The translations under genes and the position numbers were made by a program. A model generated the notes under the pieces. That model was not told where the DNA came from and did not search any database. It was given only the letters and a program-made list of their open reading frames with translations. This document shows, piece by piece, positions 236 through 5,301 of a stretch of 6,000 bases of DNA. Source of the DNA: a virus (Duplodnaviria; Heunggongvirae; Uroviricota; Caudoviricetes); IMG/VR virus record IMGVR_UViG_2778261058_000017, positions 1 to 6,000 of that record. One strand, 5' to 3'. Numbering within the stretch: position 1 is the first letter of the stretch; each line of letters opens with the position of its first letter.

Positions 236-823
236 TTATGCTGGTTTTGCTGGCCAAGTGATGTCAGGTGCTTTCGATGTATCGACCTCCTGAAGTGCTT
301 TAATGTACCAAATCCACGCAATCAGACTCGTCTTATCTTCGTCGCTAATGATTCCCAATTGCAGTTCAGTTGTCCAGAAACTGATCTTTTCCTTAGCTTT
401 TACCAATAGAATAGCTTTTTGCTTATCAGCCACTTCAACATCAGCTGCATACTTAGCATTTGGGTCTGATACCCACTTTTTCCCATCCCATTTCTGGAAC
501 GGATCAGAAGGAGCAATATTGGTATAGCCATTATTAATAGGACCAATATAGTCGATAGTATGAGGCATACCGTCAGTAGTTGAATAAACTGTCTTACCTC
601 GATGGTCTTCTTTCAAGACCCATCCTCCATTTTCGAATACAGCAACCTTTCCTGTTAGTTCATTACCCGGATCAATATCGGTAGAATTACCCGGCATACT
701 GACGCCAATATTAATATATTCGTCTGACCATCCTATATATTCAAAAGTTACTATATCGTAGTAATAGCAGCGGATTTCACCCGGTTCCGTTGCCAGTCCA
801 TTTTCATCAAAAACAGGTTTCAT
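236..823 (-). CDS. Phage tail fibre assembly protein (lambda Tfa family)
   Basis: 195-aa ORF. Translation carries blocks I recall from lambda Tfa: EDHRGKTVY, YQKWNG-type FQKWDGKKWV, and C-terminal VDTSKAPDITWPAKP (lambda: VDTSTAPDIEWP). Start ATG 821-823 overlaps the stop of the upstream tail-fibre ORF (TAATG), the usual tail fibre to tfa coupling. Confidence 0.88.
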   Translation of the reverse strand: MKPVFDENGLATEPGEIRCYYYDIVTFEYIGWSDEYINIGVSMPGNSTDIDPGNELTGKVAVFENGGWVLKEDHRGKTVYSTTDGMPHTIDYIGPINNGYTNIAPSDPFQKWDGKKWVSDPNAKYAADVEVADKQKAILLVKAKEKISFWTTELQLGIISDEDKTSLIAWIWYIKALQEVDTSKAPDITWPAKPA

Positions 824-1635
824 TATTTAGCCCTTACTAAAAAGTTAAATGTGATATTGCGGGGACGTGTTTCGTTGCCTCCAGGATTTTGGAATGCAGG
901 TAAAGCTCCCCCTATCGGCTGACTGATTCCGTTGGTATATAAAGGAGCTGCATTCGATATTGTACCAAACACTACATTGCTACCATTTCCGCTTGTCCCT
1001 AAAAATTTATGCTCATGCATTTTGAAGTCATCTGCTTGTGCAGAAAGTAAGGTTCGCCCTCTATCCACCCCGCGCCCATCATCCCAGATACGAATAAAAT
1101 CACCCCGTGCGTCAGGTAATGCTAGCGCCGGAAACACTTTCGCCAGCACAGGGTAATCAGTGGCAGAGAATTTCGCGCCGTTGAACTTCAAAAACACCAT
1201 ACTGGACCAACTGTCGATTACAGTATTTGGCATTGCGGCGGACGGCCAGAAGAACGGAACACCAATAGCTGGAGCACCTTCTCCCAAACCAAGATTTTCG
1301 AGAGCCGTTTTCACCGTGCCATCCGATTTGATATCACCAAACGGATTCTTGCGGCTTAACAGCAGCGCGCGAAGTGCGGTACCAAAGGCAGCACCTTTTA
1401 GCTCCGCAAGACGTTCTGACCAGTCATGCGCCAGCGCGTTGTCTTCCGCCGTGTAATACGCAGCACATTTGGCGTTATCACCGTCAGTGAACAGATCCAG
1501 AACAAACGGGCCAAACAGGGTGTTAATTCCCCAGAAAATGTTATCCGGCGTGCGCCACTGATCGCCCACTTCCTTCAGTTCATGGGCTGGTTTGTTCCGC
1601 AGTTCGACCAGCGCCTGGCAATATTTATTACTCAT
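823..1635 (-). CDS. Chimeric ORF: N-terminal fragment of phage Dam-like N6-adenine methyltransferase (about aa 1-85) fused in frame to a phage tail-fibre C-terminal domain
   Basis: Likely start is ATG 1633-1635 (MSNKYCQ...), overlapping the stop of the upstream gene as TAATG, with a GGGGG Shine-Dalgarno-like run upstream; the GTG at 1668 in the ORF track is probably an over-extension. N-terminus has the W-x-TP ... NAK ... Y-T-x-ED ... W pattern of phage Dam-family methyltransferases but breaks off at GAAFG, exactly where the catalytic NPPY motif would follow. The remainder ends in [19 protein letters not shown], resembling the conserved C-terminus of P2/Mu/lambdoid tail fibres, and is coupled to the downstream tfa. 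Family assignments are from recalled motifs. Confidence 0.72.
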
Positions 1636-2123
1636 TAAGCCCCCACGTAATTCCCTGACAGATACCACTCATCACCCGGTACAGCGCGCTTGCTGCTTTT
1701 CCGTAAACACCGCTCACGACGCGCAAGAAAATTGTTTCGCTCTGGCTGGGAGTGGCTTTCACGGAATGCCGCCATCCACACCGTTGCAGCACGACGGTAT
1801 AAGCCCCTGGACTCCAGTTCTTCCGCCTGGCGGGTCAGGCACAAAATCACCCGCGGGTCGTTAGTGCCGACATAGAAATTGCGCACAGGTCTGGTTTCAC
1901 GAACTGGTTGTGGTTCCGGCTCCTGCGCTCTCTCAGTCAGGCGCGGGAAATGTCTGCGTGTATCTCCTTCACAACGGTGAGCCACACGCCCACTCTGACG
2001 TAACTTGCTTGCTGACTGCAGAACGCGCTGCCGTGAGTAACCTGCAAAAGCATCCGCAATGTCTCCGGAAGTACAGCCCGGATGGGCTTCAATGAATTTC
2101 TGAACGTCATTCAAAAGACTCAT
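1635..2123 (-). CDS. PerC/ANR-like domain protein (putative transcriptional regulator), prophage-encoded
   Basis: Open frame of 162 aa from ATG 2121-2123 (or 164 aa from the GTG at 2127-2129, which overlaps the O-like stop as GTGA). The C-terminal segment [21 protein letters not shown]...ARRERCL matches the recalled PerC/Pch/ANR signature (E-x-R-G-L-W/Y-R-R-A-A ... R-x-x-C). The N-terminal 60 aa could be a small helical DNA-binding domain. Stop overlaps the next start (TAATG). Confidence 0.65.
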
Positions 2124-2125
2124 GC

Positions 2126-3067
2126 TCACCCCCTGAATCCTGCCGGGATCTGGCTGTAGTCCACGTTGTCGTAACTGGCTTTGAAGTACGGGTCCTCGCG
2201 TTTTTCGGTGTACGTGCTGACGGACGGCGATAAGCGCAGGGAAAGCTCATCCCATTTTTCCCGCAGCTTCGACGGGCTGAGCACGTTACGGCACCAGAAC
2301 GGATCGCGACTGACGCGGCTGTACATCTCGCAGATTTGTTTATGAGTACGACCATCCTGCACACACATCAGGCGAATTTCGTTTGCCCAGGCTGTCCAGT
2401 TCGGTTCTTTGGGACGAACCACCTCGCCGTCACATTCGGCGGCATGCTCGTACAGGGCGATGATTTTTTTCCAGAGCCACTGTGCGCAGGTCAAATCATC
2501 CTGCGTCCCCCACTGGCGCTTTTTAGGGCTGAATACAACCGCATCAGGATGGCGAGTTAAAAAATCCTGTTCAGCCTTCTGCGTGTCCGGTTGCGAAGCG
2601 TCCGGACGAGAAGTTTTTTTATCTGACGGATCATGTTTTGATTTTACTGACGGATCCCCGCCAGATTCTGACGGGTGAAAACCCGCTTTTTTGCCAGATT
2701 TCGACGCATCAAATTTTGACGGGTCAGATTTTGATGCGTCAGATTTTGACGGGTCAGAATCTGACAGTTGAGAAAAAGCCGCAGCCTGAAGCTTCGCAAC
2801 GTTAAGCTGATAAACATTCGACGCATTGCGGTTACCCTGGCGACGCGCCTTACGCGTTAACCAGCCTTCTGCTTCCAGCCGTGCGATAGCCGTTCTGACG
2901 GTACTCATCCCCGCGCCAATCTGGCGGGCAATGGTTTCAATTGATGGCCAGCACACACCTTCGTCATTACTGAAATCAGCCAGGCGTGCCATAATTGCCA
3001 CGCTGGATAATTTCATGCCTGACGCTGCGCAACCATCCCATACATAGCCGGTTAATTTAGTGCTCAT
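2126..3067 (-). CDS. Phage replication initiator (lambda O-like), N-terminal winged-HTH DNA-binding domain, carrying internal iterons
   Basis: 313-aa ORF with ATG at 3065-3067 preceded by GAGG. The N-terminal about 90 aa look like the HTH domain typical of phage/plasmid replication initiators (SSVAIMARLADFSNDEGVCWPSIETIARQIGAGMSTVRTAIARLEAEGWL). The central low-complexity segment SDSDPSKSDASKSDPSKFDASKS is encoded by tandem 15-bp DNA repeats, as in lambda where ori lies inside O. Confidence 0.82.
   Translation of the reverse strand: MSTKLTGYVWDGCAASGMKLSSVAIMARLADFSNDEGVCWPSIETIARQIGAGMSTVRTAIARLEAEGWLTRKARRQGNRNASNVYQLNVAKLQAAAFSQLSDSDPSKSDASKSDPSKFDASKSGKKAGFHPSESGGDPSVKSKHDPSDKKTSRPDASQPDTQKAEQDFLTRHPDAVVFSPKKRQWGTQDDLTCAQWLWKKIIALYEHAAECDGEVVRPKEPNWTAWANEIRLMCVQDGRTHKQICEMYSRVSRDPFWCRNVLSPSKLREKWDELSLRLSPSVSTYTEKREDPYFKASYDNVDYSQIPAGFRG
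2621..2770. repeat. Putative replication origin iterons: about 8 copies of a 15-bp repeat (consensus near AGATTTTGACGGGTC) inside the O-like gene
   Basis: Five contiguous 15-bp units at 2695-2709, 2710-2724, 2725-2739, 2740-2754 and 2755-2769, plus three dispersed copies at 2621-2632, 2641-2656 and 2662-2677, all sharing the core TGACGG (TGATGC/CGACGC variants). DNA-level identity exceeds what the encoded Ser/Asp/Lys linker would need. Confidence 0.6.
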
Positions 3068-3076
3068 GACCGACCT

Positions 3077-3415
3077 CTATTTCCCTGAATTTACGACGAA
3101 ACTGTTCGAGCGGACTGAAGCATTCATGCTCATAGCCTTCGCGGAGGTAGATAACCCGTTGTGTTTCCGGCTCCCAACGAATGACTCTGACGGGTACTCC
3201 GTAGTGATCTTTGAACCAGCGGTTAACTTGTCGCAAAGGACTGTCTCCTTTTGCCGGTTAAAATCACCCACAGCCCACTCTGCAAAGCTGTGGGTTACAA
3301 TTACCCTGCCACCTGGTACATTCACTGCATAGCAATACTCCACCTTCGCTTTTCCACCCGGTACAGGAAGCGCAATCAGTTGCGAGCGACGGTAGTGTGT
3401 TGTTAAACTATTCAT
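3077..3415 (-). CDS. Hypothetical early-region protein, probably disrupted by a frameshift (intact form about 119 aa ending at 3062)
   Basis: 112-aa ORF with ATG 3413-3415 overlapping the upstream stop (ATGA). A second minus-strand frame is open from 3257 to 3062 and encodes a protein-like sequence ([60 protein letters not shown]) whose stop overlaps the O-like start. The two frames can be joined by a 1-nt indel at the T4/A4 homopolymer at 3249-3252. No family recognised. Confidence 0.5.
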
Positions 3416-3963
3416 GCGTTAGTTTCTCCACAGTCACGACACGCCACGGCGCCCGGAGCTGCACACTCGCGGGCGTCATTACTTTCTGAAATGCAAAAAA
3501 TTTTGTAGACCAGTGCTGCATGCTCCTGCAGCTTCGAAATTGAGAGGTACAGCTCGTCGTTAATTGCTGTCTTCTCATGCGGTTCCACTACACCGTCTTC
3601 AATTGCTGAACGAATCTGTTTTGAATAACTGCCGATCTGTTCAATGACCTCCAGCAGGCGTTGGTTGATATCGGCGTTGTCCACATCCTCGACATCAGGA
3701 AGAGACACAAAGACGCCATTTGCAGACTGCGCCACAGCGTCAGCAATGAAGTGAGTTCCACCAGCACGTTGCAAAATCATTGCCCATCCCAGCGGGAAAA
3801 TCTGATCGCCATCGGCACGAAGGCGGTTAAATAATGCGTTCTCTGTTACATCCAGCCAGTCAGCAGCTTCAGCGTACCCCCCCGGCAACGCTGCGATAGT
3901 TTTTCTGACAGCTTTCACGTACCACTCAGGCTGTTTTTCTACTTTCCAGTGATGCTTACCCAC
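3412..3963 (-). CDS. Phage regulatory protein in the CII position (resembles the 186-CII/CP76-type family), putative
   Basis: 183-aa ORF with GTG start at 3961-3963 preceded by AGGAGG at 6-nt spacing; overlaps the Cro-like gene by 8 nt. The N-terminal region has an HTH-like segment ([22 protein letters not shown]). Position immediately downstream of cro and size both fit long CII-type regulators. Family call is from recalled features and is tentative. Confidence 0.6.
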
Positions 3964-4216
3964 GGTTCACCTCCTGTTCCTGTGGTTTAAACCCATTCTG
4001 GTTTTGGCTAGATTGAAAACGTGCCGGATAAAGAATCTGCATTTCGCTGACTTCACCCTTAAAAAAATTGGCTAAACGTTCTGCAAGCTCGATAGATGGA
4101 ATCTGCTCCAGCCTCTCAATACGACTCAACGTCGCTGGATTGACTTGAACACCCGCAGCAACATGCTGCAAAGTGAAACCATGCGCCTTACGCACATTTC
4201 GTAATGGTGATTGCAT
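3956..4216 (-). CDS. Cro-like HTH (XRE-family) transcriptional regulator
   Basis: 86-aa ORF with ATG 4214-4216 preceded by GGAGG (complement of 4222-4226). HTH segment FTLQHVAAGVQVNPATLSRIERLEQIPSIELAERLANFF. Divergent from the CI-like repressor across a 97-bp operator region. Confidence 0.8.
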   Translation of the reverse strand: MQSPLRNVRKAHGFTLQHVAAGVQVNPATLSRIERLEQIPSIELAERLANFFKGEVSEMQILYPARFQSSQNQNGFKPQEQEVNRG

Positions 4217-4313
4217 ATGTCCTCCAAATATTGCGCGTTATGCATGTTATTTCACGCAATTATTTTGCGCAAGTTGATTTGCTTATCACGCAATAAAGAA
4301 ATGTAATAAACGC
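4217..4313. promoter_or_regulatory. Divergent promoter/operator region (OR-like) between the Cro-like and CI-like genes
   Basis: Two similarly built 29-bp sites: TTGCGCG-N15-CACGCAA (4231-4259) and TTGCGCA-N15-CACGCAA (4265-4293), with half-sites 22 bp apart. Candidate leftward promoter: -35 TTGCGC (complement of 4267-4272) and -10 TAACAT (complement of 4244-4249). Candidate promoter for the repressor: -35 TTGCTT 4279-4284 and -10 TGTAAT 4302-4307, ending 6 nt before the ATG, and no Shine-Dalgarno sequence, suggesting a leaderless mRNA as for lambda cI from PRM. Confidence 0.65.
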
Positions 4314-5006
4314 ATGAACATAGGAAACCGAGTCAGACAACTTCGCCAAGCGAAGAACATGAAAATCGCCGATCTCGCTGAAGCAATAGGAGTAGATGCG
4401 GCGAACATCTCGCGCTTAGAAACGGGTAAGCAAAAACAATTTACCGAACAAACACTGAGTAATATTGCCAAGAGCTTAGGTGTTGATATTGCTGATCTCT
4501 TTACCTCTGCCCACAAAAGTAATACTGTATATAAAAACAGTAATAATGAGGATGTTGCGCAGGTGAAGGATGTGTTCCGTATTGAAATGCTGGATATCAG
4601 TGCCAGTGCGGGAAATGGCCTTATCCAGGGCGGTGATGTCATTGATGTGATTCATGCCATCGAATACAGAACTGATAATGCTGTATCAATGTTCGGCGGA
4701 CGACCAGCCAATCACATCAAAGTTATCAACGTTCGTGGGGACAGTATGTGTCCAACCATTGAGCCAGGAGATCTCATCTTCGTTGATGTCAGCATCAATC
4801 AGTTTGATGGTGATGGTATATATGTCTTTGGTTTTGATGACAAAATATACGTTAAAAGACTTCAAATGATTCCTGACAAACTGCTGGTGATTTCTGATAA
4901 CCAGATTTACCGTGAATGGGGAATTACTAGCGAAAACGAACACCGATTCATGGTCTTTGGAAAGGTCTTAATCAGTCAGTCGCAAACCCTTAAGAGACAT
5001 AATTAA
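4314..5006 (+). CDS. CI-like prophage repressor: N-terminal HTH (XRE) plus C-terminal LexA-type S24 peptidase autocleavage domain
   Basis: 230-aa ORF. N-terminal HTH (IADLAEAIGVDAANISRLETG). Putative Ala99-Gly100 cleavage site (SASAGNG). Ser144 in GDSM and Lys181 in YVKRL, with the Ser-Lys spacing of 37 that I recall for LexA. Confidence 0.92.
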   Translation: MNIGNRVRQLRQAKNMKIADLAEAIGVDAANISRLETGKQKQFTEQTLSNIAKSLGVDIADLFTSAHKSNTVYKNSNNEDVAQVKDVFRIEMLDISASAGNGLIQGGDVIDVIHAIEYRTDNAVSMFGGRPANHIKVINVRGDSMCPTIEPGDLIFVDVSINQFDGDGIYVFGFDDKIYVKRLQMIPDKLLVISDNQIYREWGITSENEHRFMVFGKVLISQSQTLKRHN

Positions 5007-5026
5007 CCTCAATATCCCATCCATCG

Positions 5027-5047
5027 GCCACCGAAAGGTGGCTTTTT
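5027..5047 (+). terminator. Rho-independent terminator downstream of the CI-like gene
   Basis: Perfect 6-bp stem GCCACC (5027-5032), loop GAAA, GGTGGC (5037-5042), followed by TTTTT (5043-5047), 20 nt after the repressor stop. Confidence 0.7.
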
Positions 5048-5063
5048 ATTACCTATAAAGTTA

Positions 5064-5097
5064 CATATCTCGCAAATATTACTTGCATATCTCGCAA
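5064..5097. promoter_or_regulatory. Putative secondary (OL-like) operator: direct repeat of CATATCTCGCAA, 22 bp apart
   Basis: Identical 12-mers at 5064-5075 and 5086-5097. The 10-bp core TATCTCGCAA matches the OR half-site TATCACGCAA (4284-4293) at 9 of 10 positions. A possible promoter overlaps (-35 TTGCAT 5083-5088, -10 TATCTT 5106-5111). Confidence 0.4.
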
Positions 5098-5260
5098 TTT
5101 AATTTTATCTTTTGTTCCAGACCAACTACAGGATTACAACAAAATCTGGTTGCAACACGGTGCATGTGTCGTAAGCAGTCAGTAAATGTCAAAAACGAAC
5201 AGGCAGGACGCCCACGAAGTAGCCGCCTGGGGCATATGAAGTCTAGGGTGATTCGTTAGC

Positions 5261-5286
5261 AACAAAAAAGCGCCCTACAGGACGCT
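5261..5286 (-). terminator. Hairpin plus T-run: candidate intrinsic terminator on the minus strand (alternatively a boxB-like hairpin of a plus-strand antitermination site)
   Basis: Stem AGCGCCC (5269-5275), loop TACA, GGACGCT (5280-5286), with one mismatch. On the minus strand it is followed by TTTTTTGTT (complement of 5261-5269). On the plus strand it lies 2 nt upstream of the boxA-like element. Confidence 0.4.
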
Positions 5287-5288
5287 TA

Positions 5289-5301
5289 GCTCTTTAACAA
5301 T
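5289..5301 (+). promoter_or_regulatory. boxA-like element GCTCTTTAACAAT (NusB/NusE-binding type antitermination signal)
   Basis: 13-nt run matching the recalled E. coli rrn leader boxA (TGCTCTTTAACAATTTATCA) and the boxA consensus GCTCTT(T)A. It sits in the plus-strand leader about 45 nt upstream of the small ORF at 5346, i.e. in the position of nutL relative to cI in lambda. Confidence 0.5.

Follow-up and report, generated by a model that had tools for sequence, protein, structure and literature searches.

The DNA examined here very likely carries the repressor/Cro immunity switch of a lambdoid prophage of the SfII/mEp460 type. The conservation of this region among related loci points to an essentially lambda-like switch with compact 15-bp operators. 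We file the region as a lambdoid switch because the cI and cro genes are divergent, the repressor combines HTH and S24 domains, a single operator type occurs at both OR and OL and overlaps the predicted early promoters, and the repressor gene has the hallmarks of a leaderless mRNA. A preliminary description of the window (the whole 6,000-nucleotide stretch of DNA that was analyzed) had proposed an OR-like operator architecture built from two 29-bp sites. Our analysis upholds an OR-like region of divergent operators and promoters flanked by CI-like and Cro-like genes, but not the 29-bp sites, in which two helical turns would separate the half-sites. In all likelihood, the 29-bp motifs are the strong outer halves of adjacent elements that happen to sit 22 bp apart.

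A literature search on the operators of this SfII-type immunity region found no published description. The SfII-type switch is an ordinary lambdoid switch of an uncharacterized immunity type, and the conceptual gain from describing it is small, as it adds one more lambda-like switch whose repressor mRNA probably lacks a leader. This immunity type is nevertheless common, being present also in the serotype-converting phage SfII and in several Stx2a phages. The operator consensus TTGCG-N5-CGCAA and the accompanying site map, both predicted, provide targets for footprinting. They should also be useful for predicting immunity or superinfection groups and for understanding the ease of prophage induction.

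The immunity region and its genes

Positions 3900 to 5200 share 99.3% DNA identity with the cI-cro-cII immunity region of Shigella phage SfII and approximately 91% identity with phage mEp460 and with several Stx2a-converting phages. DNA matching the cro-cI-OL stretch was found in 2,568 of 5,426 complete E. coli genomes, and 1,040 of those 2,568 genomes carry at least 80% of the stretch. The cI and cro genes diverge from a 97-bp spacer, and this layout is common to SfII, mEp460, and the 231 loci that we compared (see below). We also considered e14 of K-12 as a close relative, but rejected it as heteroimmune, with an unrelated repressor, cro, and operators.

The cI-like repressor gene (4314..5006, plus strand) encodes a protein of 230 amino acids with an N-terminal XRE HTH domain (Pfam HTH_3, E 1e-11) and a C-terminal S24 autopeptidase domain (Peptidase_S24, E 6e-19). 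The protein is assigned by PHROG as a transcriptional repressor / CI-like repressor and is 100% identical to one encoded on a Shigella flexneri chromosome, and its gene has a counterpart in SfII that carries the annotation cI. In a PDB sequence search, CI matched only weakly and at the level of domains, and no close relative with a solved structure was found. The N-terminal domain weakly matches the 434 repressor DNA-binding domain (1per, E 0.008) and the designed 434-type protein dh434 (1sq8, E 4e-4), and the C-terminal part aligns with UmuD, including the GDSM and VKrLQ motifs. The residues relevant to self-cleavage are Ala99-Gly100 (read from the translation), Ser144 of GDSM, and Lys181 of VKRL. 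Because the UmuD-aligned motifs are preceded by Ala99-Gly100, CI looks like a RecA-inducible lambdoid repressor, and we predict that it undergoes self-cleavage.

On the opposite strand, the cro-like gene (3956..4216, minus strand) is an open reading frame for an 86-amino-acid protein with an XRE-type HTH domain (Pfam HTH_3, E 5e-10), and cro homologues occupy the equivalent position in all related loci. The canonical GGAGG previously described upstream of cro is indeed present (4225..4221, minus strand). It is separated from the ATG at 4216 by a 4-nt spacer and is kept in relatives, where the plus strand reads CCTCC or CCCCC. The recognition helices of the two proteins are alike (ANISRLETGKQ in CI and ATLSRIERLEQ in Cro), and Cro is predicted to bind, probably, at the operators of CI.

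Adjacent to cro is a gene for YmfL (3412..3963, minus strand), a phage 186-CII-like protein (PF06892, Phage_CP76, E 1.5e-13) for which the PHROG annotation is “CII-like transcriptional activator.” Further along the window are a YmfM-like open reading frame, an O-like replication gene, and a PerC-like gene, and there is no N-like gene in the window. When the whole window was searched against Rfam with E values up to 1 allowed, the sole match was a spurious microRNA hit inside the O-like gene.

Comparative set and operator scoring

Loci encoding relatives of CI were collected from species-representative genomes (8 loci, 66% to 100% amino acid identity) and from viral contigs. The resulting set comprises 231 sequences with a CI homologue, among which there are 95 distinct upstream sequences and 27 lineages. 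Lineages were separated by differences at more than 8 of the 103 positions, and each is represented by one sequence. The length of the cro-cI spacer is essentially fixed, and the sequences could therefore be aligned without gaps. Column information is given on a scale of 0 to 9, where 9 is close to the 2-bit maximum.

Candidate operators were scored with a symmetric PWM built from the compact OR and OL sites. Some of these training sites come from the clade that includes the window, and the PWM scores of sites in that clade are therefore circular. Across 97.8 kb of related loci, scores of at least 10 concentrate at six recurrent positions, and just 4 hits fall elsewhere. The training sites do not include two of these six positions, namely -133, inside cro, and -56, at the middle operator. 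The four top hits in the window, to be read with the circularity just mentioned, start at 5083, 4231, 4279, and 5061.

Predicted compact operators between cro and cI

The conserved unit among the 231 loci and 27 lineages is a 15-bp pseudo-palindrome, TTGCG-N5-CGCAA. High-information columns among the 27 lineages correspond to TTGCG (4231–4235), GCAT (4242–4245), TTGCGCAAGT (4265–4274), TTGC (4279–4282), CGCAA (4289–4293), and TGTAAT (4302–4307), and the TTA of a minus-strand -10 element is invariant as well. When tallied by half-site, the outer and inner halves of the left operator (A′) are present in 26 and 22 lineages, respectively, and the inner and outer halves of the right operator (D′) in 24 and 26. 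The half-site at 4253–4259 (half-site B) is present in 3.

Operator A′ (OR1-like; TTGCGCGTTATGCAT, 4231..4245, PWM 18.1) covers the predicted start of PR together with the edge of its -10 element. Its halves form the arrangement TTGCGCG-T-TATGCAT, where TTGCG and GCAT are invariant in the 27 lineages, and the left site of distant relatives, TTGCGTATTACGCAT, is a good compact palindrome. Likewise, the halves of operator D′ (OR3-like; TTGCTTATCACGCAA, 4279..4293, PWM 18.0) form the arrangement TTGCTTA-T-CACGCAA with invariant TTGC and CGCAA. The first 6 nt of D′ constitute the predicted PRM -35 element, and the geometry matches that of PL, with the operator followed by 8 nt and then the -10 element.

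Between these two operators is the invariant TTGCGCAAGT (4265..4274), in which all 10 columns score 9 among the 27 lineages. Its palindromic core, TTGCGCAA (4265–4272), reads as a half-site on both strands, and on the minus strand it supplies TTGCGC (4272..4267), the predicted -35 element of PR. The core in other lineages is half of a middle operator, located at the equivalent of 4258–4272 (PWM up to 13.8) or 4265–4279 (PWM up to 14.8). Most lineages have a third, middle OR site (PWM 5 to 14), whereas the clade of the window has half-sites only.

A weaker operator-like 15-mer, minus-strand GTGCGTAAGGCGCAT (4181..4195), overlaps cro codons 8 to 12 and is the fifth-best PWM hit in the window, with a score of 8.4. 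Equivalents of this cro-internal site score 10 to 20 in 22 of the 27 lineages. These scores greatly exceed those obtained by synonymous-codon resampling, with p values of 0.002 to 0.05 in most lineages and 0.055 for the window type.

As predicted from this conservation, the binding unit of CI is probably the compact 15-bp pseudo-palindrome. We favor this unit because the partners GCAT and TTGC are conserved, because half-site B is missing in 24 of the 27 lineages, and because the OL sites are 15 bp long. It is also compatible with the 434/SinR-type HTH domain of CI.

A predicted second operator cluster downstream of cI

The cI gene is followed by an intrinsic terminator (5026..5048, plus strand) composed of the stem GGCCACC/GGTGGCT and a T-run, and it corresponds to an annotated terminator in SfII. 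Two 15-bp TTGCNNNNNNYGCAW sites are found downstream of cI in 24 of the 27 lineages. The first of these in the window is OL1 (TTACATATCTCGCAA, 5061..5075, PWM 12.4), which is likewise present in 24 of 27 lineages and whose equivalent in a Shigella flexneri locus (L004) is TTGCATATCACGCAA. The second is OL2 (TTGCATATCTCGCAA, 5083..5097), the best PWM hit in the window with a score of 19.6, which overlaps the predicted PL -35 element. The distance between the starts of OL1 and OL2 is 22 bp in the window and 22 to 24 bp in relatives, and the internal 15-bp spacing is constant.

The assignment of 5061–5111 as OL/PL is supported by a comparison with e14. The cI, cro, and operators (TGTACC motifs) of e14 are unrelated to those of the window, but the layout is the same, and the e14 operator motif recurs just after the repressor terminator. 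The predicted PL has the -35 element TTGCAT (5083–5088, plus strand), a 17-bp spacer, and the -10 element TATCTT (5106–5111), from which a start near 5118 would be expected. A conserved structured element was also observed in the predicted PL leader.

Predicted promoters and their likely regulation

Our promoter calls rest on conserved hexamers and geometry and are weak matches to the consensus (7 to 8 of 12 positions), and a sigma-70 consensus scan of 4100–5300 returned no promoter at threshold. The predicted PRM (plus strand) consists of the -35 element TTGCTT (4279–4284), a 17-bp spacer, and the -10 element TGTAAT (4302..4307), with a start near 4314. The predicted PR (minus strand) consists of the -35 element described above, a 17-bp spacer, and the -10 element TAACAT (4244..4249; TAAYAT in the family, at conserved positions), with a start at approximately 4236 to 4239. 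From such a start, the cro mRNA would have a normal leader of about 20 nt that bears the GGAGG.

The -35 hexamer of each of the three predicted promoters is formed by the initial six bases of a whole operator or of one operator half, and a repressor bound at these positions would exclude RNA polymerase. We propose that a CI dimer, whose XRE HTH is joined to a LexA/UmuD-like S24 domain, would bind the compact TTGCG-N5-CGCAA pseudo-palindromes. Binding at 4231–4245 would cover the predicted PR start, and the core at 4265–4272 would overlap the predicted PR -35 element. The sites at 5061–5075 and 5083–5097, beyond the cI terminator, would cover the predicted leftward early promoter PL. Occupancy of 4279–4293 would block the predicted PRM -35 element, and the placement of D′ argues for negative autoregulation of cI; positive autoregulation is not evident. 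SOS-induced self-cleavage of CI would then derepress PR and PL.

A probably leaderless repressor mRNA

The earlier proposal that the cI mRNA is leaderless agrees well with the conservation of the region. The TGTAAT hexamer at 4302–4307 is separated from the cI ATG at 4314 by 6 nt (AAACGC), as had been noted. The hexamer is invariant among the 27 lineages. Of the 95 distinct upstream sequences, 92 place it 6 nt and 3 place it 7 nt before the ATG, even as the spacer bases vary among relatives. The start codon is ATG in the window and in all 230 related loci. There is no GGAG-like run in 4295–4313, consistent with the reported lack of a Shine-Dalgarno sequence, and no Shine-Dalgarno sequence precedes cI in any relative examined (95 distinct upstream sequences).

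The start codon itself is tightly bracketed. No in-frame ATG, GTG, or TTG occurs between the upstream stop codon (TGA, 4275–4277) and 4314, and the reading frame therefore cannot start upstream of 4314. A start further downstream is also impossible because the HTH domain begins at residue 3 to 7. These features suggest that the cI mRNA produced from TGTAAT is probably leaderless, with transcription beginning at the A of the ATG at 4314 or at an adjacent base. A second, establishment-type promoter may produce a leadered cI transcript. The lambda cI transcript from PRM is leaderless (PMC10491246), and 5′ RACE and N-terminal sequencing showed that the mRNA of the CI-like gene paaR2 in prophage CP-933P lacks a leader as well (PMC8630535).

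An orphan half-site in the SfII/mEp460 clade

Half-site B (CACGCAA, 4253..4259), the right half of the first proposed 29-bp site, scores above threshold in only three lineages, namely the SfII/window, mEp460, and Citrobacter types. Its columns have low information among the 27 lineages of the family, but inside the clade its ACGCAA is kept while the flanking bases vary. The half-site is the exact mirror image of 4265–4271 about position 4262. We considered whether these two half-sites together form a reversed palindrome (CGCAA-N5-TTGCG, centered at 4262), but this was rejected, since its polarity is opposite to that of every conserved site. We treat half-site B as a clade-specific auxiliary half-site.

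An extension of the compact-operator explanation, which does not oppose it, is that the SfII/mEp460 clade alone has a mirror-symmetric OR of four elements. In this arrangement, additional, cooperatively recruited CI or Cro dimers would bind the orphan half-sites, each through one good half (in registers 4245–4259 and 4265–4279), in place of a middle operator. Several observations are consistent with such an OR: the mirror symmetry about 4262 is exact, and both middle-operator registers score below 0 in this clade (PWM -7.4 and -2.6), which therefore lacks a full middle operator. The clade has instead two perfect orphan half-sites exactly 22 bp from the outer halves, and ACGCAA is kept within it despite being located in a promoter spacer. 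Furthermore, no cro-internal site in the family is weaker than that of the clade (8.4, and 2.1 for the mEp460 type). CP-933P provides a precedent: it has four inverted repeats, and in two of them one conserved half is missing (PMC8630535).

We nevertheless consider the four-element OR unlikely. A single clade represents one evolutionary event, which makes statistics impossible, and the L160 lineage has neither a middle operator nor half-site B, so compensation for a lost middle operator is not required. Sites that abut 14 bp apart would place their dimers on different faces of the helix. Moreover, the 13-bp tandem similarity between 4247–4259 and 4260–4272 suggests a simple origin by duplication. 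The corresponding functional proposal, that the middle operator of the clade has been replaced by two mirror-symmetric orphan half-sites 7 bp inside the outer operators and that repressor or Cro consequently occupies OR in a non-lambda manner, is more doubtful still. If true, this could mean, for instance, that a second dimer docks through one half-site beside each of the outer dimers, or that a tetramer engages three of its DNA-binding domains per side.

The 29-bp motifs

Less probable again, and in our judgment very unlikely, is the original reading that 4231–4259 and 4265–4293 are two 29-bp operators. A single dimer of CI or Cro would occupy each site with widely separated DNA-binding domains, such that the half-sites are two helical turns from each other. 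The pattern itself is real. Both sites match TTGCGCR-N15-CACGCAA exactly, and the half-site starts are spaced by 22 bp as described (4231 to 4253 and 4265 to 4287). When up to two mismatches are allowed, the 6-kb window has 3 matches compared to 0.14 expected, far above chance, and none of 200 shuffles reaches 3. Likewise, 5 of the 10 YRCGCAA heptamers in the window fall within 4231–4293. The arrangement at the second site is found at the equivalent position in 229 of the 231 loci, and half-site B mirrors 4265–4271 and is kept in the clade amid varying flanks. Relative to other lineages, the clade of the window also has more degenerate inner halves in both A′ and D′.

The family-wide comparison argues against this reading. 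The partner at 4253–4259 is absent from 24 of the 27 lineages, including L160, whose CI recognition helix (residues 23–45) is identical to that of the window, whereas the compact partners GCAT and TTGC are invariant. At the predicted PL operators, which are 15-bp sites, the 29-bp core (TTGCG-N19-CGCAA) is absent from all 231 loci. The left copy of the 29-bp pattern is confined to the clade of the window. The N-terminal domain of CI is a 434/SinR-type XRE HTH, a class whose half-sites are normally one helical turn apart. The conserved spacing at the second site cannot discriminate between the models because the lineages are related and the intergenic region is without indels. Together with the role of the 4265 core as the predicted PR -35 element, this lack of indels explains the spacing. 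We therefore return to the compact 15-bp operators as the preferred reading.

A role for the 22-bp-spaced half-sites as the target of the neighboring CII-like YmfL, with the second site straddling the predicted PRM -35 element, has a negligible probability, although CII of phage 186 reportedly recognizes inverted half-sites that lie on either side of a -35 element, two helical turns from each other. The family assignments of YmfL noted above and the center of the second site (4279), which is at -35 relative to 4314, fit this idea. However, YmfL is 95% identical in e14, whose cI/cro intergenic region has no TTGCG or CGCAA, and this rules out YmfL as the reader of the 22-bp pairs. The TTGCG and CGCAA halves also form the compact PL sites, where no activator site is expected.

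Comparison with known switches

The window resembles lambda in having divergent cI and cro genes with overlapping operators and promoters, an HTH CI protein with an S24 self-cleavage domain, and a second operator cluster at a leftward promoter downstream of cI. In both cases, the operators are pseudo-palindromic with one better half, the PRM -10 element ends 6 nt before a cI ATG that has no Shine-Dalgarno sequence, and cro has a Shine-Dalgarno sequence. The predicted PR and PRM starts are approximately 77 bp apart, and those of lambda are 82 bp apart.

The two systems differ in operator length, which is 17 bp in lambda and 15 bp (TTGCG-N5-CGCAA) here, and sequence similarity to lambda CI and Cro is undetectable beyond the domain families. 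Lambda has three OL sites compared to two here, and three full OR sites compared to two full sites plus two orphan halves in the clade of the window. Furthermore, the promoter-proximal site here covers the predicted PRM -35 element, with its center at approximately -28, and the place of lambda CII is taken by a phage 186-type CII (YmfL).

Phage 434 is similar in its compact operators, whose outer bases are conserved and whose centers are variable, and in the weak match of its repressor to the N-terminal domain of CI, although the sequence identity is too low for a shared specificity to be deduced. Its operators are 14 bp long rather than 15 bp, and the recognition sequence is different, with 434 operators having the form ACAA...TTGT.

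We know of only one element among the protein families of this neighborhood that has a half-site spacing of about 20 bp, namely the phage 186 CII site. The window does encode a homologue of 186 CII beside cro, but the TTGCG half-sites do not travel with YmfL, as demonstrated by the heteroimmune e14. The resemblance of the 186 CII site to the 22-bp spacing is therefore considered coincidental.

The PaaR2/YdaS region of CP-933P (PMC8630535) is a divergent CI-like/Cro-like region of 97 bp, the same length as in the window. As in the arrangement predicted here, the CP-933P repressor transcript starts at the start codon, and the region has several inverted repeats, not all of which retain both conserved halves (PMC8630535). 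However, neither the proteins nor the repeat sequence (GTTTAGTAA) is related to those of the window, and the repeats are four equally spaced elements of 18 bp (PMC8630535). PaaR2 also differs from the CI protein of the window in that it heads a paaR2-paaA2-parE2 toxin-antitoxin operon (PMC8630535).

Extent of the immunity region and a conserved element in the predicted PL leader

Comparison with the heteroimmune e14 prophage of K-12, whose cI, cro, and operators are unrelated, delimits the part of the SfII-type prophage that can be exchanged. Similarity to e14 resumes approximately 25 nucleotides before the start of ymfL, the 186-CII-like gene beside cro (boundary at about position 3985), and on the other side it is picked up again at a conserved element in the predicted PL leader (boundary at about position 5195). 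The stretch between these two points, which holds cro, OR, cI, the terminator, and OL/PL, therefore behaves as a single exchangeable immunity cassette.

The PL leader element spans approximately 63 nucleotides (5194-5257, plus strand). It begins 2 to 4 nucleotides past the predicted PL start in most lineages, and its 25-mer CAGGCAGGACGCCCACGAAGTAGCC is matched exactly in 158 of the 231 related loci, including e14, where it lies on the minus strand (4147-4171 of that locus). The consensus fold has four covarying pairs and consists of two hairpins plus a closing stem. Across the alignment, 98.6% of cells are paired; sliding the partners lowers this to 20-42%. None of 500 shuffles reaches the observed covariation score. 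A comparison of the element with Rfam yielded no match. The element could be a leader RNA that acts in antitermination or stability.

An operator-like site within cro

A full operator-like 15-mer lies within cro codons 8-12 (4181-4195). It matches the weight matrix derived from the predicted 15-bp operators of the family, including some from the window's own clade, and the operator over the predicted PR start is 50 bp away, or about five helical turns. This internal site (TTGCGTAAATCGCAA, matrix scores of 16-20) equals the predicted operators in strength in most lineages; it is weakest in the window's clade (8.4 for the window itself). In most lineages the site also scores far above synonymous-codon resamplings of the same Cro peptide (p = 0.002-0.05). 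Such a sequence may serve as an auxiliary operator for looping or as a roadblock.

Annotation of the mEp460 repressor

In the GenBank record of phage mEp460 (JQ182728), the repressor begins at an internal ATG and has 216 residues (2960-3607 of that locus). The conserved ATG lies 45 nucleotides upstream, and starting there gives 231 residues, compared to 230 for the SfII repressor. The internal ATG was likely chosen because no ribosome-binding site precedes the true start; a leaderless gene would appear just so to an annotator.

Other features of the window

The O-like replication gene (2126-3067, minus strand) contains 4.3 copies of a 15-nucleotide tandem repeat (CAGATTTTGACGGGT, 2695-2758), which encodes an SDPSKSDASKS-type repeat and probably represents origin iterons. 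The sole Rfam match of the window, to a microRNA family, falls within this repeat far below the family threshold and is spurious.

The prophage in the window is a deletion derivative, as seen at 236-1668 (minus strand). The open reading frame at 823-1668 (minus strand) begins with residues 1-85 of the SfII Dam methylase, 100% identical, fused to a further C-terminal segment. This segment has no database match, and from its own sequence and position it looks like a tail-fiber end. Since a tail-fiber assembly gene (Pfam Caudo_TAP) directly follows this fusion, the SfII late genes that lie between these parts are absent here.
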